Origin: Pseudomonadota bacterium | Lineage (GTDB): Bacteria > Bdellovibrionota > FAC87 > UBA2466 | NCBI GenBank assembly: GCA_043767805.1 | Contig: JAYUGC010000099.1 | Coordinates: forward strand, 1 to 63,786 | DNA length: 63,786 bases | Direction of reading: 5' to 3' | Shown here: positions 94-54,123 of the stretch, piece by piece | Position numbering within the stretch: the first letter of the stretch is position 1 | Layout of the letters: every line of letters starts with the position of its first letter | Notes under the pieces: model-generated | The model's input: the letters and a program-made list of their open reading frames with translations, nothing else | Databases searched by the model: none | Told to the model about the DNA's origin: nothing | Made by a program: the position numbers and the translations under genes

Positions 94-1836
94 TTAACCG
101 GTCAACGCCATCGACTGAGCGGTTTTCGAGTAGGCGTGGTTCTCGATGATTAAATGGTCCAGGTCCGAGTTGAGAAAGCACCGCATGGCATCTCGGGGTG
201 TGCAGACGATGGGCTCAGAGTCATTGAAGGACGTGTTGACGAGCATCGGAACGCCGGTGCGTTTTCGGAACGCTTCGATGAGTTTCCAGTAAAAAGGCTG
301 GGTGTGCCGAGTGACCGATTGGATGCGGCAGGTATTATCGGCGTGTACCACGGCATGAATTTTAGCCCGCGCCTCTCGCTTCACTTCGAAAACCGCTTCC
401 ATGGTCGGGCTGAAGAAAGACTTCTCGAACCACTGGTGCTGCTGCTCCCAAAGGACGGATGCGGCGAACGGACGGAAAATTTCCCGGTGCTTCACGCGCA
501 CATTCAAGCGGTCTCTCATTTCCAGAGGGCGGGGATCGGCGATAATGCTCCGGCTTCCCAAGGCGCGTGGGCCAAATTCCATCCGGCCGTGCAAGAGCCC
601 CAGGATTTTTCCCGCGCAAAGCTCGGTCACCATCCACTCGATGAGCTCCGCTTCGTCGGCGTACTCTCGTTTCGCGATGGTCGAAGCTTCTTCGGCGGAG
701 AGCTCCAATGGCTTTTCCATGCCGGGCCCGAGGAGCGCCCAGTGATCGCCCATGGGCTTAATCGGTCCGGGAACGGCGGCAATGGCAGCGCCGACTGCGA
801 TGCCTGAGTCATGGGCCGCGGGGGCTACATGCACGTGCTGAAAGGGAGAGCTTTGCGGAATTTTTCCGACCCAGACGCTGTTGTGCGCGCAACCACCCGC
901 GAGAGCCAAATGTTTCTCGGGGACTCTCTTATGCAGCAGCCCCAAGAGATGGTTCGCGACTTCCTCAAAGCGGATTTGAATCGATTTCGCCAGATCGCGG
1001 TGCTGCTCGGTGAGCGGCTCTTCCTTGCTGCGGGCCGGAATCCCGAGGAGCGGCGCGATGACCCGCTCATTGAAGAAGGACGCGACGTAGGGTTGTCCCT
1101 TTTCAATGGTGAACTGAATGGGCTTGGTCAAAATCGGGAACGCTTCGAGGTTAAGGCGAAAGCCTTCCGGCGTTTCGGTGATGAGCTCGCGCAAGACGTT
1201 CACGTAGCGAGCCGTTCCGTATGAGGAGAGGCCCATGACTTTGAACTCGTCGCCGAAGTACGGAAAGCCGAGATACTGCGTCATCGCCGTGTAGAAAAAT
1301 CCGACGGAGTGCGGAAAGAAAATCCGCGAGTGAATGGAAACCTTGGAGCCCTGCGCCGAGCCAAAAGCGGTGGAGACGAAATCCCCCAAGCCATCAAAGG
1401 AGAGCATAGCCGCGCTTTCCGTGGGGCAAACATGGCGGGCGCTCAGCATGTGAGCCAGATGGTGCTCGACCCGGAAACGTTTGGCGTGCCCGAGGCCCAG
1501 CTCCTTAAGATGTTCATTTAAGGTAGGTTCCCGGCTCGCGCGCCGCGAGCCGCGCTTCATGAGGGCAGGGTACCTGAGCGCCAGCGCCATCTTATGATGG
1601 ATGCCCATCCAAGGATCCCGGGCGATGGCGACCGTCTGGATCTGGTCTGGCCGGAGTCCGGCTGCCTTCAAGCAGTAGCGGATCGAGTGCTCGGGAAACA
1701 GCGCGTAATGCTTCAAACGCGTGAAGCGCTCTTCTTCCACCGCCGCCACTAGCTGGTTGCCCACGACGAGCGCCGCGGAGGAATCTCCGTGACCGACGCT
1801 GATACCTAGGGCGGTGCGTAATGTGGAGTGAGGCAT
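94..1836 (-). CDS. Carbamoyltransferase, NodU/CmcH family
   Basis: N-terminal HGDSSAA..EEERFTRLKH, HHLAH, DGLGD, KVMGLSSYG, GRMEFGPRALGSRS and NTSFN motifs. Confidence 0.93.
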   Translation of the reverse strand: MPHSTLRTALGISVGHGDSSAALVVGNQLVAAVEEERFTRLKHYALFPEHSIRYCLKAAGLRPDQIQTVAIARDPWMGIHHKMALALRYPALMKRGSRRASREPTLNEHLKELGLGHAKRFRVEHHLAHMLSARHVCPTESAAMLSFDGLGDFVSTAFGSAQGSKVSIHSRIFFPHSVGFFYTAMTQYLGFPYFGDEFKVMGLSSYGTARYVNVLRELITETPEGFRLNLEAFPILTKPIQFTIEKGQPYVASFFNERVIAPLLGIPARSKEEPLTEQHRDLAKSIQIRFEEVANHLLGLLHKRVPEKHLALAGGCAHNSVWVGKIPQSSPFQHVHVAPAAHDSGIAVGAAIAAVPGPIKPMGDHWALLGPGMEKPLELSAEEASTIAKREYADEAELIEWMVTELCAGKILGLLHGRMEFGPRALGSRSIIADPRPLEMRDRLNVRVKHREIFRPFAASVLWEQQHQWFEKSFFSPTMEAVFEVKREARAKIHAVVHADNTCRIQSVTRHTQPFYWKLIEAFRKRTGVPMLVNTSFNDSEPIVCTPRDAMRCFLNSDLDHLIIENHAYSKTAQSMALTG

Positions 1837-1845
1837 TCGGGACTC

Positions 1846-1872
1846 GTATCGGCGAATTTGTTGGGAAATATA
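1846..1872 (-). promoter_or_regulatory. Putative sigma28 (FliA) promoter for the carbamoyltransferase
   Basis: Minus strand TATA-N15-GCCGATAC, ending about 10 nt before the ATG at 1836. Confidence 0.45.
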
Positions 1873-1908
1873 AGCGTACTAGGCTCCGAGAAAAAGATCA
1901 TCTCCGGT

Positions 1909-1935
1909 TAAGGAAGGCGGTGTTGCGGCCGATAA
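1909..1935 (+). promoter_or_regulatory. Putative sigma28 (FliA) promoter for the WecA-like gene
   Basis: TAAG-N15-GCCGATAA, close to the TAAA-N15-GCCGATAA consensus. Confidence 0.65.
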
Positions 1936-1964
1936 GTTCTTGGAATCGTCAAAGAGACCGCACA

Positions 1965-3332
1965 ATGCCCTCCTTCGCCAACCTATTTCCCTCCACAATC
2001 TTTCTCTTGGTCGGCGCCATCGCCGCGATTCCGCTCATTCGGCTGAACATCCGTTGGGCTGCTCGTCTCGGCTTCATCGATTATCCCAAAGCCCGCGGGG
2101 TCGCCGAAGATCACATTCCGATCATCGGGCACGCGCTCGTCGGGCTCACGCTCATTGCCATGGCTTGGTTCTTCGGCGTGCAGACCCAGCGCTACTGGTT
2201 CCTCGGAACGGCCGCCCTCATGGCGGTGATGGGTTACCTGGACGATCGCAACGGGCTTTCCCCCGTCGATAAAATGCTTTTGCAGATGATCTGCGTGCTC
2301 GCCATGGTCCACTGGGATCCGCTCCTTCGCGAGTCCATGGTCACCCGCTACGGCTCTTGGGGCACGTTCTGGTCCGTTTTCTTCGTCCTGGGCCTTACGA
2401 ACGCCGTGAATTTCGTGGACGGCATCGATGGGCTCGCCGGCGTCGTCCTCTTCTTCGGCGGCGCGGGATTTCTTTTCATGGCCCCGGACAATCACAGCGA
2501 CTCCGCCTCCCTGAACGTCGTCTGCCTCATCATGGGAAGCATCATCCCGTTTCTCTTCTTCAACGTGTTGAAGCGCAAAGGTTTCCTCGGCAACGTCGGC
2601 AGCTACTTCTTCTCTTACGTGCTCGGCATCATGCACCTCTCGCTTTTCATTCCGGCCGAGATGCCGATTGCCCGCGTTTCTCTCTCGGGCCTTTGCTTTC
2701 TCGTGCCCATCGCCGACTCGCTGCTCGTCATCACGACGCGGCTCATGTCGCTTCGCTCTCCGTTTCAGCCGGACAAGGGCCATTTGCACCACCGCCTCAT
2801 TCAGAGCGCGCTGCCGTTACGCCACGTGCTGCTCAACTTTGCTTTCATCGAGGCCGCGGCCGTGGGTGTCGCCGTCGTAATGGCGCATCACCTTCCCAGC
2901 CTGCACACGCCGCTTCCGTTTCTGCTCTGCTTGAGCCACGCGGCGCTCGCGTCCGTTTTGATCTTCCTCGTGGAAAAGTCCTCTCGCCGGCGGCTGCAGT
3001 ATTTCTTCCAGCGCATGGATACGGGAGAGCCCATCCATTTCATGAAGTACGTCATCACCAGCACGACCGAAAAGCCGGTGAGCCCCGCTCAGCTGCGCCG
3101 TCTGGAAGCGCTGATCAGCGCGGAGATCCGGGTGACCGACCTTTGCTTCACCGACGGGCCCGATGCTCTCGTCATTTCGGTGAAGAGCCAGGCCGGCGCG
3201 GTGGAAGGCATCCACAACCGCGTGGGCATCCTCTTCACGCGCAATCGCCTCTCCTATACGCTGACCGTGGAACAGGGCGAGTTCGTTAAGGTAACTCGCA
3301 CCATCCCCACCCAGAAAACCATCGCTTCCTGA
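1965..3332 (+). CDS. WecA/MraY-family (GT4) undecaprenyl-phosphate sugar-1-phosphate transferase with a C-terminal degenerate GGDEF-like domain
   Basis: GYLDD, NAVNFVDGIDGLA, FLGNVGS and PFQPDKGHLHHRL motifs with many TM helices; soluble tail IRVTDLCFTDGPDALVI; start moved to ATG 1965. Confidence 0.88.
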   Translation: MPSFANLFPSTIFLLVGAIAAIPLIRLNIRWAARLGFIDYPKARGVAEDHIPIIGHALVGLTLIAMAWFFGVQTQRYWFLGTAALMAVMGYLDDRNGLSPVDKMLLQMICVLAMVHWDPLLRESMVTRYGSWGTFWSVFFVLGLTNAVNFVDGIDGLAGVVLFFGGAGFLFMAPDNHSDSASLNVVCLIMGSIIPFLFFNVLKRKGFLGNVGSYFFSYVLGIMHLSLFIPAEMPIARVSLSGLCFLVPIADSLLVITTRLMSLRSPFQPDKGHLHHRLIQSALPLRHVLLNFAFIEAAAVGVAVVMAHHLPSLHTPLPFLLCLSHAALASVLIFLVEKSSRRRLQYFFQRMDTGEPIHFMKYVITSTTEKPVSPAQLRRLEALISAEIRVTDLCFTDGPDALVISVKSQAGAVEGIHNRVGILFTRNRLSYTLTVEQGEFVKVTRTIPTQKTIAS

Positions 3333-3371: not shown

Positions 3372-5135
3372 ATGGTGGCTCCCATGTCCCTCAATCAGCG
3401 GATTTTGAACCGGCTCGGCTTGGGCGCGTTACGGCGGCTCTTCGCGGAGTTCCGTCCTTATAAGGGCCGGCTCTTTCTCGTGCTCGGCTTAGGGATCGTC
3501 ATCGCCGCCATTCAGCCGGCGAGCGTGAAGCTCACTCAAGACATCATCGACGGCTTGAAGCTCGGGCACGTCTCCGAAGCGCTCCGCTACATTCCGTTTT
3601 ACCTGGTGGCCCTTTTCGCCATCAACGGCCTCGCCAAGTACTTCTACAACACCGTCCGCCGCTACGTCTCCGAGCGCATCATCATCTCGCTCAGAGATCG
3701 GCTCTATCAGAAGTACCTGCAGCTTCCGATGCCGGAGCTCGAGCGTCGCCGTTCGGGCGAGATGATGGCCAATCTGCAAAACGATTTGACCCAGATTCAA
3801 AACGGCATGGACACGCTCTGCGACTTTTTAAGAGAGCCGTTCACTTTTTTCGGGCTTATCGCCACCGCGTTTTATTGCGATTGGCGCCTGACGCTCGTCA
3901 CGCTCTGCGCGGTGCCTCTGGTGCTCTTTCTCTTCGATAGATCGGGCGCCGCCGTAAAGCGCTACACGCACCGCAACCTTCAGGACTTCGGCGACTTGAT
4001 GTCGCTCAGCTCGGAGACGCTCTCCGGCGCGCGCATCATCAAGGTGTTTCGGCTGGAACCCTTGCTGCAGGGCAAGTTCCGCGCGCTCCACGAAAAATGT
4101 TTCGGCACTTTGTGGAAGAGCATCAAGGTGCAGGAAATCTCGACTCCCGCGGTGGAGTTCATCGGCGCGATTCTCATGGCGGGCGTGATTTATTACGGCA
4201 GCTACCGCGCCTCTCTCGGCCTTTTGACGTCGGGACAGCTCATTGCCTTCATCATCGCCATCGGGCTCTGTCAGATGCCCATCAAGCAGCTAAACAACGC
4301 GAACCTGAAGTTAAAAGCGGCGGAGGCCGCAGTCACGCGCGTTTACACGCTCCTCGAAGTGCCCGTGCCCGAGGCCGGCACGCATGCCGAGCGCGGCTTG
4401 GATTTTCAAAGAGAAATCCGCTTCGACAACGTGTCACTGCGCTACGGCGACAAGATGGCGCTGGAAGAAGTTTCCTTCGAGGTCAAAAAAGGCGAAGTCA
4501 TCGCGTTGGTGGGGCCGAGCGGCAGCGGCAAATCGAGTCTGGTCAATTTGCTACCTCGGCTCTATGAGGCCACGTCGGGCCGAGTGCTCATCGACGGCCG
4601 AGACACCAGAGAAGTTTCGCTCGCCTCTCTGCGTTCGCTCTTTTCCTTCGTCACCCAGGATATTTTTCTCTTTCACGATTCCATCTACGAGAACATCCGT
4701 TTCGGCCGGCCCGACGCCACGAGGGAAGAAATCATCGAGGCGGCCCGGCGCAGCCATTCCCTGGATTTCATCGAGCGAGGGCCTCAGGGCTTCGATACGA
4801 TTATCGGCGACCGTGGCCTTTGTCTGAGCGGGGGCGAGCGTCAGCGGCTGGCCATCGCGCGCGCCATCCTCGCCGATGCGCCGCTGCTCATTCTGGATGA
4901 GGCGACGTCGAGTCTCGATAGCCACTCGGAAGCGATGGTGCAAGCCGCGCTCGAGGAGCTCATGGCCGGCAAGACAACGTTTCTCGTCGCGCATCGGTTT
5001 TCCACGATTCAAAGGGCCAATCGAATTTTGGTCTTGGATCGAGGCCGCATCCGCGAGTCAGGCACCCATGGAGAACTGGTGCTGAAGGACGGGCTCTATC
5101 AGGGGCTCTACCGTCGGCAGGCGCTTCCGGTTTGA
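3372..5135 (+). CDS. MsbA-like ABC exporter/flippase (fused TMD-NBD)
   Basis: Six-TM N-half, Walker A GPSGSGKS, LSGGERQR, Walker B ILDEATS; start may be ATG 3384. Confidence 0.9.
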   Translation: MVAPMSLNQRILNRLGLGALRRLFAEFRPYKGRLFLVLGLGIVIAAIQPASVKLTQDIIDGLKLGHVSEALRYIPFYLVALFAINGLAKYFYNTVRRYVSERIIISLRDRLYQKYLQLPMPELERRRSGEMMANLQNDLTQIQNGMDTLCDFLREPFTFFGLIATAFYCDWRLTLVTLCAVPLVLFLFDRSGAAVKRYTHRNLQDFGDLMSLSSETLSGARIIKVFRLEPLLQGKFRALHEKCFGTLWKSIKVQEISTPAVEFIGAILMAGVIYYGSYRASLGLLTSGQLIAFIIAIGLCQMPIKQLNNANLKLKAAEAAVTRVYTLLEVPVPEAGTHAERGLDFQREIRFDNVSLRYGDKMALEEVSFEVKKGEVIALVGPSGSGKSSLVNLLPRLYEATSGRVLIDGRDTREVSLASLRSLFSFVTQDIFLFHDSIYENIRFGRPDATREEIIEAARRSHSLDFIERGPQGFDTIIGDRGLCLSGGERQRLAIARAILADAPLLILDEATSSLDSHSEAMVQAALEELMAGKTTFLVAHRFSTIQRANRILVLDRGRIRESGTHGELVLKDGLYQGLYRRQALPV

Positions 5136-5138
5136 GGG

Positions 5139-5495
5139 CTATTCTTTATCTTTGGCTTGATCGTCGGTGGCGGAGGTCTGGGTCAGGTCGACCGGCTGCA
5201 GGTTCGGGTTCTTCGAAGATTGCGACGCGAGCACTTTGCCGCGGTTTTGGTAATCGTTGGGGCTAATCACGCCGTACATCTTCTTCACTAGAAGCTCGTG
5301 GCACTCTAGCTCTAGGTCTTCGAGTACGCCGGGTCTCATGTGCACGGGCACGTGAGCTGGAGTCGAGTCCAGGTAAGCCAGGTAGTCGACGGCGAGTTGC
5401 TTCGTGAAGGCGGCAGCGTCGTCGTACGACTTACTGAGCAGGTGCTTCTCGAAGAGTTGGAAGAGGGGATCGATTTGTTTCTTTTTCGTCTTCAT
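5139..5495 (-). CDS. Hypothetical cytoplasmic protein
   Basis: 118-aa ORF filling the gap, protein-like composition. Confidence 0.7.
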   Translation of the reverse strand: MKTKKKQIDPLFQLFEKHLLSKSYDDAAAFTKQLAVDYLAYLDSTPAHVPVHMRPGVLEDLELECHELLVKKMYGVISPNDYQNRGKVLASQSSKNPNLQPVDLTQTSATDDQAKDKE

Positions 5496-5845: not shown

Positions 5846-5904
5846 ATTGTATTCCCTGAACTCGGACCTTTACGCACTAGGATGGCAACTTGGGTGCATA
5901 CCGC

Positions 5905-6411
5905 ATGAACACAGGCCGGACACAGCTGAAGTCCCTCCTTTGGAACCTGGGCCTTACCTTGGTCTTGGGACTTGCCTTGTCCGCGTGCGGGAAGAAGTGC
6001 CAGCCCCCCGCGACCCAGAAGTTTCGGACCCTGGCCGAGACCCAATGGCGCCTGGTCGAGACGAACGACACGTCGGTCAAGGGCCTCGATCGCTTCAACT
6101 TCCTCATCTACAATTTCGCCCGTAATTTCTCCGGTAATATCCAGCAGGTACGTTACAACGACCTGTTCGAGACGCCCTTTAAGACCTTCAACTGGAACAT
6201 CAATCCCGATTCGGGTCAGCTCGTGGTCCGCTACCAGGACATCGCGCCCCTGGCGGAAGGCACGGCCACCAACACCCGCAAAGGCCCGACCGATTCCCTT
6301 TACGCTTACTCCTTGGGCCGAGACCTCGAGATTCAAGACGCCAAAGGCAACTTCTACCGCTTCGTTCCCTTCACCGGGGTCGTGGATCCCGACAGCACCT
6401 GCACCTTTTGA
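5905..6411 (+). CDS. Hypothetical lipoprotein
   Basis: Hydrophobic signal ending in lipobox LSAC; beta-rich mature part; start set at ATG 5905. Confidence 0.75.
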   Translation: MNTGRTQLKSLLWNLGLTLVLGLALSACGKKCQPPATQKFRTLAETQWRLVETNDTSVKGLDRFNFLIYNFARNFSGNIQQVRYNDLFETPFKTFNWNINPDSGQLVVRYQDIAPLAEGTATNTRKGPTDSLYAYSLGRDLEIQDAKGNFYRFVPFTGVVDPDSTCTF

Positions 6412-6500: not shown

Positions 6501-6938
6501 GTGACCACGAACAAGTTGACCGAAGATCTCAAGAAACTGGCGAACGCGCAGGTGTTCATTCCGCTGACCAAACAGCTGAATGTCTATGAAAAGAAGGCTC
6601 GGGGCCTCATCAAGGAATTCGACCTTCGGAGCCGCGAAGCTCGCGACAAGAGCCGCGCCCGGTTGGATGATTTCCTGGTACAGCTCAAAAAAACCCGAAC
6701 CGAGGTAGAATCCAAAGTACGGTCTCTTTACGAAGAAGAGAGCAAGCGGATCAACGCCCGGGTGAACGACCTTCTGGAAACTATCCGGACGGTGGCTCAG
6801 CCGGACTCGGCGCCTACCAAGGCCGCGGCGCCTAAATCCAAGACGGCGACCCGCAGCAGCAGAAAGAAGACCGGAACCAAGAAGACGGCCAAGAAACGTG
6901 CCTCCACCAATGCTACCCAAACGACGACGGCTCACTAA
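6501..6938 (+). CDS. Coiled-coil protein with a Lys/Ala/Thr-rich basic tail (PhaF-like architecture)
   Basis: RBS AAGGAG before the GTG start; amphipathic helical N-part; tail KAAAPKSK..KKTAKK. Confidence 0.7.
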   Translation: MTTNKLTEDLKKLANAQVFIPLTKQLNVYEKKARGLIKEFDLRSREARDKSRARLDDFLVQLKKTRTEVESKVRSLYEEESKRINARVNDLLETIRTVAQPDSAPTKAAAPKSKTATRSSRKKTGTKKTAKKRASTNATQTTTAH

Positions 6939-19676: not shown

Positions 19677-20618
19677 ATGACCAGCACGGAAGGCAACACC
19701 CCCAAAGTTCGGAAAGTGGTAGTCGCCGACGATAGCCCCGAGAACTTGGCGCTCCTAAGCGAAGCGCTGACTCTCGCCGGCATCGAAGTGCATTTGGCGG
19801 AAGACGGCGCGAAAGCCATTCCCCTCATCGAGCACGTCTCGCCCGATCTCGTGCTCCTCGACTACAACATGCCCAATTTGAACGGGCTCGAGACGCTGCA
19901 GAAGCTCAGGGCGAAAGAAAATTACGTGGCGGTGGTTTTCATCTCCGCCAACACCGACCCAAAGTTAATCGCCAATTGCCTTGCCGCTGGTGCCGACGAT
20001 TACATCCGCAAGCCCTTTCCTTTCGCGGAGCTCGTCGCGCGCGTGCAAGTACGCTTTCGCACCAAAGATCTCCACGACGCTTTGAGAGTCGCCAATCAGC
20101 AGCTGCAAGATTTGAGCGAGCATGACGACCTCACGGGTCTGTTCAACATGCGCTGCATTTACGACAAGATCGAGTTCGAGCTGCGCCGGGCCCGCCGTTA
20201 CGGCAGGCGCATGGCTTGCGTGATGATGGACATGGATAATTTCAAGACCATCAACGACGGCGCCGATCATCTTTTCGGAAGTTTCGTGCTTAAGCAGGTG
20301 GGCCGGCTCATCGCGCAGAATATCCGTGAAGTGGATTTAGCCGCCCGCTACGGCGGCGACGAGTTCCTGGTGGTGCTCACCGAGATCACCTCCGACGGCG
20401 CCGCGAAATTCTCCGAGCGCGTGAGAAGCGTTATCTCTAAGCACGAGTTTACCGACGGCAAGCACTCGGCCAAACGGACGGCGTCCTTGGGTTATGCCGT
20501 TTCCGAGGCGAGCGCCACCCTGTCCGCCGTGGAGCTCGTTCGCAAGGCGGATCACGCCCTCTACGAGGCGAAGCACGCGGGCCGAAATCGGGTCATCGGC
20601 CACCACTACGACAAATAA
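19677..20618 (+). CDS. REC-GGDEF dinucleotide cyclase with Hypr-type Ser (candidate cGAMP synthase)
   Basis: REC (ADD..LLD..KP), DDLTGLFN, DMDNFK, NDGADHLFGS, REVD I-site, RYGGDEF. Confidence 0.9.
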   Translation: MTSTEGNTPKVRKVVVADDSPENLALLSEALTLAGIEVHLAEDGAKAIPLIEHVSPDLVLLDYNMPNLNGLETLQKLRAKENYVAVVFISANTDPKLIANCLAAGADDYIRKPFPFAELVARVQVRFRTKDLHDALRVANQQLQDLSEHDDLTGLFNMRCIYDKIEFELRRARRYGRRMACVMMDMDNFKTINDGADHLFGSFVLKQVGRLIAQNIREVDLAARYGGDEFLVVLTEITSDGAAKFSERVRSVISKHEFTDGKHSAKRTASLGYAVSEASATLSAVELVRKADHALYEAKHAGRNRVIGHHYDK

Positions 20619-52779: not shown

Positions 52780-54123
52780 TTATCTCAGATCGGGCGGCTC
52801 GGCGGGCGCGATCGGCTCCGGAAACGCCATGTGAACCGCGTTTCTGGACTCCCGCTTCACCGTGTACATGGCGCTGTCCGCGAGTCGTAACAACGTATCG
52901 CGCTCCATAGTGTGGTCGGGATAAACCGCGACGCCCACACTCACGGTCGTTTGAATCCGCTGCTCCTGCACCACGAAAACACGGCGCTCGATCTGGCGGC
53001 GGATGCGCTCGGCAATTTCCCGCGCGCCTTCCTTGTTCGTGTCGTGGAGAATCACCACGAACTCGTCCCCGCCGTAACGAAACACCGGATCGATGTTACG
53101 AACGCAGTTACGCACCGCTTTCGCAATCGCGACGAGAAACGCACTACCCAACAAATGCCCGTGCTTGTCGTTGATGCTCTTGAAATGATCCACGTCGATA
53201 AAGAGCACGGCAAAGTGCTTCGCCTTTTGGCTCGTGCGCACGATGGCGTTGGTGAGCGCGTACTTCAGATATCGGGAGTTATAGAGCCCCGTGAGATCGT
53301 CGATGAAAGTACGCTGCTTCACTTCTTCGAACTTCTCGAGGTTCAGCAAACAGACTTGAGTGTGCTCCCAGAGAAGCTTCGTCTCGGAAAGCCGTTTCGC
53401 TCCCGCCGCCCCGGGAATACCCCAAAGCAAAACGCCGCCGAGCTTATGATCTTGGCACGCGAGATACACTTTGCGGGTTCCGTCTTTGGCGACGAATTGC
53501 CGAAGCTTCGGCCCGTGGTCCCAGCCCTGCCGCCGAGGTAAAAGGTCCTGCACGCCAATGGTTTGTACTTTGCGCGGCACTCCGCAGATGAGCTTCTGCT
53601 CGCCGTCGAGCCAGGCCCCGCCTTCCGCTCCCAAAGTCTGCTGCAAAAATTCCAAAGCGCAGAGCCGGAGTAACCAAATCGAAGTGCTCGAAGAAATCTG
53701 CGTGAACGCCCGCACCAAACGCGCGCGTGGTCCTTCTAACCTTCGCATCATCACTTGGCGCTGTAGTGCACGGCGCAGAGTCCACGCCATTTCTTCCGGA
53801 CTCACGGGCTTTAAAAGATAATCGGTAAATCCGCAGCGGATGCAGCGCAGAGCGCTCGCGGCCGAGTCCGTTTCGGAAAGCCCAATCAAATCACTATCGG
53901 GAAAAGCCGCGCGCAACGCTTCGAGCTGCGGTTCCCAGGGAGTCGGGATGGCGTCCAAGTCGAGGAAGACGGCCAACGGAGGGCTCGGGCTCTTGTCCGC
54001 GAGAAGCCCTTCCAAAGTCGGAAACCAATGAATCGTACCGCCCAAACCGGCTACAGCCGTGTCATAGGGGTGCCGCATTTCGTCTGAACCAAAGAAAGCG
54101 AAGATGGTCTTGGTGACTGACAT
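52780..54123 (-). CDS. REC-(GAF-like)-GGDEF dinucleotide cyclase with Hypr-type Ser
   Basis: Atypical REC (FLDLD, DYLLKP), DDLTGLYN, DVDHFK, NDKHGHLLGS, RNID, RYGGDEF. Confidence 0.88.
   Translation of the reverse strand: MSVTKTIFAFFGSDEMRHPYDTAVAGLGGTIHWFPTLEGLLADKSPSPPLAVFLDLDAIPTPWEPQLEALRAAFPDSDLIGLSETDSAASALRCIRCGFTDYLLKPVSPEEMAWTLRRALQRQVMMRRLEGPRARLVRAFTQISSSTSIWLLRLCALEFLQQTLGAEGGAWLDGEQKLICGVPRKVQTIGVQDLLPRRQGWDHGPKLRQFVAKDGTRKVYLACQDHKLGGVLLWGIPGAAGAKRLSETKLLWEHTQVCLLNLEKFEEVKQRTFIDDLTGLYNSRYLKYALTNAIVRTSQKAKHFAVLFIDVDHFKSINDKHGHLLGSAFLVAIAKAVRNCVRNIDPVFRYGGDEFVVILHDTNKEGAREIAERIRRQIERRVFVVQEQRIQTTVSVGVAVYPDHTMERDTLLRLADSAMYTVKRESRNAVHMAFPEPIAPAEPPDLR

Follow-up and report, generated by a model that had tools for sequence, protein, structure and literature searches.

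A polytopic phosphoglycosyl transferase of Bdellovibrionota carrying a conserved GGDEF-like tail, a candidate c-di-GMP receptor on a glycan-priming enzyme

Introduction

Direct control of polysaccharide output by cyclic di-GMP (c-di-GMP), which serves as a second messenger, is well established in synthase-dependent systems, and in BcsA-PilZ and Alg44 the messenger receptor domain lies within, or is bound to, the membrane enzyme that makes the glycan. A second messenger receptor domain in or on such an enzyme is likewise described for NfrB-MshEN (PMC8669469). These are all processive synthases with PilZ or MshEN domains, and none is a priming enzyme or a receptor of the inhibitory-site (I-site) type. 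Here, we describe a gene from a bacterium of the phylum Bdellovibrionota in which a candidate receptor of that type is fused to a phosphoglycosyl transferase of the kind that primes lipid-linked glycan synthesis. The gene lies on contig JAYUGC010000099.1 of assembly GCA_043767805.1; positions 1 to 63,786 of its forward strand (64 kb) are the window to which all nucleotide positions refer.

The closest described counterpart of the receptor part is PelD of Pseudomonas aeruginosa (PF16963), a membrane-anchored protein with a dead GGDEF-type domain that ordinary GGDEF profiles miss, and which controls the output of the Pel polysaccharide system post-translationally. PelD binds c-di-GMP through an R-x-x-D motif and a later arginine (R367, D370 and R402), and the substitutions R367A, D370A and R402A are each reported to abolish c-di-GMP binding and pellicle formation (PMC2170427). 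The I-site, as described for PleD, comprises the RxxD motif (R359, D362), R390, and an arginine from a neighbouring domain (PMC7288161). The post-translational control of undecaprenyl-phosphate-dependent pathways (Wzx/Wzy and ATP-binding cassette (ABC) types) is described as incompletely understood, and the same work, dating only from 2025, reported a regulator that acts on a priming transferase (PMC12802240). In that system, from Myxococcus xanthus, the response regulator EpsW directly activates the initiating transferase EpsZ, as proposed through its dimeric state (PMC12802240). EpsW is, however, a separate phosphorylated receiver protein, EpsZ is monotopic and belongs to a superfamily unrelated to that of the enzyme described here, and no nucleotide messenger acts on the enzyme.

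The protein encoded in the window has features of several of these systems. Its N-terminal part resembles WecA, MraY and DPAGT1 in its PF00953 match, its fold, and its invariant catalytic aspartates and histidine motif, but it falls under the WecA equivalog cut-off (TIGR02380) and bears a 115-residue C-terminal domain, hereafter the tail, that our searches found only in one order. The tail aligns with cyclases of the PleD type (PF00990) over ~100 residues of stalk helix and palm core; its RxxD motif stands five residues ahead of the hairpin, and the helix that follows supplies an arginine, but it lacks GG[DE]EF, DxD and the C-terminal third, has one helix between strands 1 and 2, and gives no PF00990 match. 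Its pattern of residues matches that of PelD, and by analogy the fusion would work most like that protein. PelD, however, belongs to a synthase-dependent pathway, where it forms a subunit of its own that has a GAF domain and is not an enzyme; the tail is shorter, has neither a GAF domain nor a PF16963 match, and is fused to the priming enzyme of an undecaprenyl-phosphate-dependent pathway.

In the literature searched, which left most subscription journals outside, we found no account in which a phosphoglycosyl transferase, whether of the WecA/MraY family or another, is joined to a GGDEF-type domain, in agreement with a preliminary description of this DNA, made from its letters, whose author knew of none. 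Nor did a survey of monotopic transferases (PMC11257628), when its text was searched, yield any description of a priming transferase with such a fusion. We present evidence that the tail is probably derived from a GGDEF domain and that it retains an invariant I-site-like triad, and we weigh the reading that it gates the priming enzyme in response to c-di-GMP against its alternatives.

Results

The features of the fusion gene and its neighbourhood are collected in Table 1. The start at 1965 matches the N-termini of all close homologues, unlike an alternative upstream ATG at 1821 that would add 48 codons (1821-1964, forward strand). Because these codons run into the beginning of the divergently oriented carbamoyltransferase gene, the true intergenic promoter region is only ~128 bp.

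The N-terminal part of the protein matches Glycos_transf_4 (PF00953) over residues 79-226, with an expect value (E) of 2.2e-24 and 86.7 bits against a cut-off of 27 (90.3 bits in the genome scan). A full-length AlphaFold2 model, built from an alignment of 29 homologues, has a mean predicted local distance difference test (pLDDT) score of 80 and ~11 long helices ahead of residue 351. Its top match in Foldseek is MraY (8tlu; E 4.3e-8, template modelling (TM) score by target 0.68), followed by human DPAGT1, and all 22 displayed of the 38 matches at E<=1e-3 are MraY or DPAGT1. Ten residues are invariant in the 29 sequences, and we take them to be the cytoplasmic catalytic motifs of the superfamily: D93-D94 (DD), N146, N149 and D152-G153 (NxxNxxDGxDG), and H273, H275-H276 and R277 (HxHH). 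Because these catalytic columns are invariant, the transferase is very probably active. The enzyme had been called WecA-like in the preliminary description; membership of the superfamily stands, by PF00953 and by fold, whereas the narrower assignment does not, the best NCBIfam model being wecA TIGR02380 at 103.8 bits, under an equivalog cut-off of 326.05. By these sequence scores the enzyme is a member of the WecA/MraY/GPT superfamily and no WecA equivalog. The only other PF00953 gene in the genome, of 369 codons, is MraY-like, so that the organism has no second enzyme of the WecA type. Three monotopic priming transferases (PF02397) are also encoded; their open frames were inspected for GGDEF-like domains and hold none.

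The stalk helix that prolongs the last transmembrane helix forms part of helix 317-351 in the full-length model and corresponds to helix 2-14 in a model of the tail, and its residue R343 is invariant across homologues (n=29). Escherichia coli WecA has eleven helices and a cytoplasmic C-terminus, as is predicted for the fusion enzyme. From the 11 helices of the model and the basic stretch after the final one, the tail is expected to be cytoplasmic, on the side of the active-site DD and HxHH loops.

Conservation within the tail was counted over 41 unique sequences that diverge down to ~25% identity, one of which (P0023) is a fragment with an unreliable end. R389, D392, C394 and R419 are each present in 41/41, and E387 and I388 in 40/41. 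The RxxD motif of the window's protein, RVTD, occupies residues 389-392 (nucleotides 3129-3140), and it sits five residues ahead of GPDAL, the GGDEF-equivalent position, where conservation drifts (G in 13, P in 30 and D in 26 of the 41). Three profile alignments give one register, in which RVTD lies against RxxD, GPDAL against GGEEF, and R419 against the leading arginine of the 'ERlR' helix. In this alignment R389, D392 and R419 appear to coincide with the published I-site triad, PleD R359, D362 and R390. Because the triad is invariant while the GGDEF-equivalent positions drift, the allosteric face appears to have been maintained by purifying selection while the catalytic one decayed, as would be expected if the tail were an I-site receptor. 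From the residues it has lost, the tail is predicted to be unable to make c-di-GMP itself. The genome has 9 GGDEF and 13 PilZ matches, and c-di-GMP signalling is thus present. A complex prediction with two tails and two c-di-GMP gave an ipSAE score of 0.01 against a mark of 0.42, without controls, and speaks neither for nor against dimerisation or binding. The coordinates given for the gene, RVTD and GPDAL in the preliminary description are exact on the translation, from which the five-residue spacing of RxxD to a decayed GGDEF and the loss of DxD can also be read; conservation of RxxD among homologues, which it had named as a check, is complete.

The same description had aligned the tail without gaps to the REC-GGDEF protein encoded at 19677, and this too is borne out. 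The 30-residue segment LRRLEALISAEIRVTDLCFTDGPDALVISV pairs with LKQVGRLIAQNIREVDLAARYGGDEFLVVL at 9/30 identities, and no gapless pairing of 30 residues from these proteins scores higher than its BLOSUM62 value of 36, which is reached by only 15 of 2000 tail shuffles; taken alone, this alignment is modestly above chance. Profile comparison extends the likeness. When 32 tails were compared by hhalign with 36 GGDEF domains (9 from the window's own genome and 27 from eight genomes of the same order), the score was 32.4 (P 7.9e-5, probability 61%, 62 columns), and with the genome's own 9 domains it was 31.8 (P 1.1e-4). A reversed tail scored 17.4, 200 column shuffles had a mean of 12.8 and a maximum of 20.3, and 200 shuffles of 8-column blocks reached at most 20.6. 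Comparisons with two ferredoxin-like families from the same genomes gave 11.0 (tail/ACT), 13.9 (tail/HMA), 14.8 (ACT/GGDEF), 10.6 (HMA/GGDEF) and 18.2 (ACT/HMA). By these controls the profile likeness of the tail to GGDEF domains appears specific.

An AlphaFold model of the tail, from 23 sequences, has a pLDDT of 82 and the order helix 2-14, strand 19-27, helix 35-48, strands 54-57 and 62-67, helix 71-87, and strand 90-95. PelD (4eu0) is its top match in Foldseek, with E 3.2e-3 and a TM score by query of 0.50, and many GGDEF domains follow, interspersed with aIF2-beta and designed ferredoxins. In a VIA-align comparison of the Foldseek top 1000, the GGDEF domain of T. maritima (4urq) is first, at Z 9.1 and a root-mean-square deviation (rmsd) of 3.7 A over 101/116 residues, and GGDEF entries, counted by title, make up 31 of its 50 listed rows. 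Residues 300-424 of PleD (2wb4 and 9g86) cover residues 1-104 of the tail model at Z 8.1-8.3, and over 48,161 representative chains GGDEF domains come after SecDF, at Z 7.6-8.7 with ~100 residues aligned at ~4 A, a Z of 7-8 being common for any model in this program. When the full-length model is searched with Foldseek, the MraY/GPT entries are followed first by a GGDEF protein, ImcA, and class III adenylyl cyclases. In the ESM Atlas, the tail of a homologue (P0006, residues 337-452) has GGDEF and PelD_GGDEF clusters among its neighbours by features (0.86-0.88, below 0.9 and so leads only) and GGDEF-bearing clusters by structure (TM 0.65-0.69, leads only).

A further structural neighbour, of P0006 residues 337-444 (TM 0.68 by query), is a Planctomycetota cluster of 252-residue proteins, 84% of them carrying PF02397 (Bac_transf), and the aligned part lies mostly beyond the annotated family. 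Judged from the models, a comparable fusion may have arisen here in parallel, on a transferase of the monotopic superfamily.

The distribution of the tail was surveyed in 401 genomes of the phylum, the window's own and 400 others. It is single-copy in 31/33 and 4/4 of the other genomes of two families of one order, 35/37 in all; the two genomes without a tail match are 93% and 73% complete. With this query it was found in 0/363 sampled genomes elsewhere in the phylum. Among public sequences, just one named relative has the fusion in full, a metagenome-assembled genome of an uncultured member of the Pseudobdellovibrionaceae. Some apparent relatives were set aside. P0021, P0024, P0026 and P0027 are long repeat proteins with 5-16 short matched stretches (HYR-like repeats in P0021), and short matches of 79-167 residues, which might have been stand-alone tail proteins, begin within the last membrane helix or the tail and were read as gene fragments. 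Weak PF00990 matches were seen in two related genomes, at G139:C209:12118-12435 (E 4.7e-9) and G163:C33:25281-25595 (E 1.2e-7), which cover profile positions 1-115 of 161 within proteins of 445 and 483 residues; these shortened GGDEF domains could be intermediates towards the tail.

Gene order was compared in 17 related loci, which run from the divergent carbamoyltransferase through the fusion gene, msbA and three small open reading frames (ORFs) to ribF. The carbamoyltransferase is present and divergent in 16/17, the seventeenth being cut by a contig end, and msbA lies directly downstream on the same strand in 15/17; of the exceptions, one (L189, genome G167) has it 4 kb off and inverted, and the other (L195, genome G004) adjoining but convergent. 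Beyond the carbamoyltransferase, locus L185 continues with RadC, a HAD hydrolase, a SnoaL protein and GCS2. The three small ORFs keep their position between msbA and ribF in 14-17 of the 17 loci, across two families, and match no Pfam family at E<=0.001, the 118-residue ORF having just a chance match at 0.28.

The ABC gene downstream of the fusion is the best of 66 genome matches to TIGR02203, the runner-up scoring 381.6 bits, and seven more full-length or near-full-length MsbA-like exporters are encoded in the genome. The preliminary description had seen in it an MsbA/PglK-like flippase; the MsbA likeness holds, but it is no demonstrated glycan flippase, and it is more likely a lipid A flippase than a dedicated glycan flippase. 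The carbamoyltransferase, proposed there as a decorator of the glycan, is indeed divergent from the fusion gene; its adjacency says little of its function. We considered gene context as support for a dedicated glycan pathway and rejected it. Adjacency carries little weight because synteny spans the entire 10 kb around the fusion and takes in unrelated genes, ribF among them. Two of the genome's nine GGDEF genes lie within the window, and in two related genomes the contig that carries the fusion gene also has a GGDEF gene, ~22-23 kb away, which may reflect general synteny alone.

Table 1. Positions in the 64-kb window of the fusion gene, its parts, and neighbouring genes
Feature	Position	Strand	Description and basis
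Fusion gene	1965..3332	+	455 codons without a stop; 455-residue polytopic phosphoglycosyl transferase (PF00953) with C-terminal GGDEF-like tail
Catalytic membrane domain	1965..2981	+	Residues 1-339; ~11 transmembrane helices predicted (model)
Basic stalk helix	2982..3032	+	SRRRLQYFFQRMD...; prolongs the last transmembrane helix
Tail core	3033..3278	+	Residues 357-438; beta-alpha-beta-beta-alpha-beta, GGDEF-like palm core (tail model, VIA-align, hhalign)
E387-I388-R389-x-x-D392-x-C394	3123..3146	+	Invariant motif, R389xxD392 in the I-site (RxxD) position (41 tails and profile alignment)
GPDAL	3156..3170	+	Residues 398-402; putative decayed equivalent of the GG[DE]EF hairpin, opposite GGEEF in hhalign
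R419	3219..3221	+	Candidate third I-site residue (equivalent of PleD R390 and PelD R402); helix after the hairpin, 41/41
Carbamoyltransferase, NodU/CmcH type	94..1836	-	Divergent; PF02543 and PF16861; NodU 134.8 bits, far under the cut-off
ABC exporter	3372..5135	+	39 nucleotides downstream of the fusion gene; genome's best MsbA match (TIGR02203, 496.6 bits against a cut-off of 602)
Small ORF	5139..5495	-	118 residues
Small ORF	5890..6411	+	173 residues
Small ORF	6501..6938	+	145 residues
REC-GGDEF gene	19677..20618	+	One of the genome's nine GGDEF genes
GGDEF gene	~52840..53307	-	One of the genome's nine GGDEF genes

Discussion

The best reading of these observations, which we hold tentatively and at a little less than even likelihood, is that the tail is a c-di-GMP receptor gating the priming enzyme. 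The tail, a ~90-residue domain on a stalk helix that extends from the eleventh transmembrane helix, would be a shortened, catalytically dead descendant of a GGDEF domain, whose substrate and metal site (DxD, GG[DE]EF) is gone and whose only remaining invariant surface would be the I-site, R389-x-x-D392 with R419. c-di-GMP, probably as an intercalated dimer, would bind this site and so shift the tail, either relative to the second tail of an enzyme dimer, by cross-linking, or relative to the cytoplasmic catalytic loops. MraY-type enzymes are dimers. The shift would switch the first committed step of a lipid-linked glycan, in which the enzyme would move a sugar-1-phosphate, probably N-acetylhexosamine-1-phosphate, from a uridine diphosphate (UDP)-sugar onto undecaprenyl phosphate at the cytoplasmic membrane face; activation and inhibition are both compatible with the scheme. 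We infer three of its steps: the descent from GGDEF, c-di-GMP as the ligand, and the effect on activity.

Several results weigh against this reading, and the first of them concern descent. Residues 340-455 have no Pfam or NCBIfam match, and a Pfam hmmscan of 23 members taken singly gave 0 GGDEF matches at E<=10. At the same threshold, a genome scan with PF00990 listed 9 other genes and not the tail, and a scan with the PelD_GGDEF hidden Markov model (HMM; PF16963) left the tail unmatched. An HMM of 21 tails found only a designed binder (E 0.015) among all PDB sequences, and phmmer with the tail against 1.84 billion representative proteins returned 15 matches, 11 of which are the same fusion or its fragments and none of which is a GGDEF protein. 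Because the Pfam, NCBIfam, PDB and phmmer searches find only the fusion, the tail appears to be an orphan by sequence-to-profile methods, occurring only behind this enzyme. GG[DE]EF and the first-strand DxD are absent. BLASTP between the tail and the local cyclase gave E 5.3, which is uninformative alone, and hhalign gave a probability of just 56-61% against the GGDEF sets and 2% against that single cyclase, though in the same register.

The structural comparisons weigh in the same direction. The tail is shorter than a GGDEF domain, with one helix and not two between strands 1 and 2 and nothing past about residue 424 of PleD. No Foldseek match of the tail model reaches E 1e-3, and over the 48,161 representative chains the first VIA-align match is SecDF (Z 9.4, 78 residues aligned, 2.1 A). 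GGDEF domains are equalled by amidohydrolase dimerisation domains, by HMA and by de novo ferredoxins, which have lower rmsd over ~78 residues, at Z 8-9.4 with SecDF included. Because plain ferredoxin-like folds tie and a Z of 7-8 is common, the fold evidence for GGDEF likeness is suggestive and not decisive; and because these ties are joined by the failure of sequence-to-profile recognition, homology of the tail with GGDEF is probable and not demonstrated. As to the binding site, the equivalence of R389, D392 and R419 to the I-site triad comes from the alignment register and not from model coordinates. RxxD is described as necessary and not sufficient, a further arginine from another domain being required (PMC3838380); no such arginine was identified elsewhere in the fusion protein, where the invariant stalk residue R343 could be a candidate. 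Finally, the placement of the tail relative to the enzyme is predicted without confidence, linker residues 341-352 having a pLDDT <50 in the full-length model.

The preliminary description had proposed both a GGDEF or cyclase fold for the tail and its role in gating by c-di-GMP or cyclic GMP-AMP. The leading solved matches favour the fold, a GGDEF domain being first when the Foldseek top 1000 are compared by VIA-align and PelD the first in Foldseek, yet generic ferredoxin-like folds tie with it; the gating idea has partial support, for it came through the comparisons of fold and of RxxD conservation unrefuted, with the want of HMM recognition and the tied fold scores counting against it.

Of the alternatives, the one that survives best, and which we consider a serious but rather unlikely one, is that the tail is a lineage-specific ferredoxin-like domain without a nucleotide ligand, in which E-I-R-x-x-D-x-C and R419 form a protein-protein surface and the likeness to GGDEF is convergence on a common fold. 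Through such a surface the tail could contact cytoplasmic loops of its own enzyme, hold the two subunits together, or bind another protein, for instance the carbamoyltransferase, MsbA, or the next glycosyltransferase. Plain folds match the tail equally well and at lower rmsd (SecDF as above, HMA and de novo folds at Z ~8), no HMM recognises a GGDEF domain, and the I-site consensus has nothing that corresponds to the invariant C394 and E387. Convergence fits less well with the GGDEF profile score of 32, which is about twice the score of the tail against two real ferredoxin-like families and above every shuffle, or with three invariant charged residues that fall exactly on the I-site triad in a gapless register. 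The GGDEF alignments, moreover, span ~100 residues and take in the stalk helix, against ~78 for generic folds. The retention of the neighbours in 15-16 of 17 loci would suit a docking partner, but the synteny extends to unrelated genes (ribF), so that no specific partner is indicated.

It is also conceivable, though improbable, that the tail is GGDEF-derived and that its I-site-like pocket binds another ligand, such as 3'3'-cyclic GMP-AMP (cGAMP), guanosine tetra- or pentaphosphate ((p)ppGpp), GTP, a UDP-sugar or the undecaprenyl-phosphate head group. The evidence of fold and register serves this explanation as well as it serves c-di-GMP; an arginine-aspartate-arginine pocket suits many phosphorylated ligands, the motif includes the lineage-specific invariant residues E387 and C394, and a PleD structure that by its title holds c-di-GMP with pppGpp (9g86) is among the matches. 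The I-site cases described in the sources cited here, in which RxxD is joined by an arginine, nevertheless all bind c-di-GMP (PMC2170427, PMC7288161, PMC3838380), and no datum here favours another ligand. That the tail is a functionless remnant or linker whose likeness to GGDEF arose by chance is scarcely credible, for although the BLASTP result against the local cyclase would fit such an origin, the tail is kept in 35/37 other genomes of two families, at identities down to 25-30% and with six invariant or nearly invariant residues, and it folds with a pLDDT of 82.

On the reading that the tail is a c-di-GMP receptor, the type of receptor, an I-site, is a known one and what is new is its output, a priming transferase. 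Since priming competes for scarce undecaprenyl phosphate, a sensor built into the enzyme of that step would make for economical switching. Binding of c-di-GMP, if it occurs, would make the tail the first messenger receptor on any transferase of the polytopic (MraY/WecA) type and, at ~90 residues, the smallest I-site module known, and would offer a handle for finding cryptic receptors that Pfam misses. A bolder proposal, and a somewhat doubtful one, is that throughout one order of Bdellovibrionota the sole priming enzyme of the WecA type has come under direct control of c-di-GMP, or of a related cyclic dinucleotide, by way of a minimal GGDEF remnant reduced to its I-site, and that such gating has been repeated in both transferase superfamilies. 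Were it true of both, second-messenger gating of undecaprenyl-phosphate priming would have evolved repeatedly, and would constitute a general, unrecognised layer of surface-glycan control.

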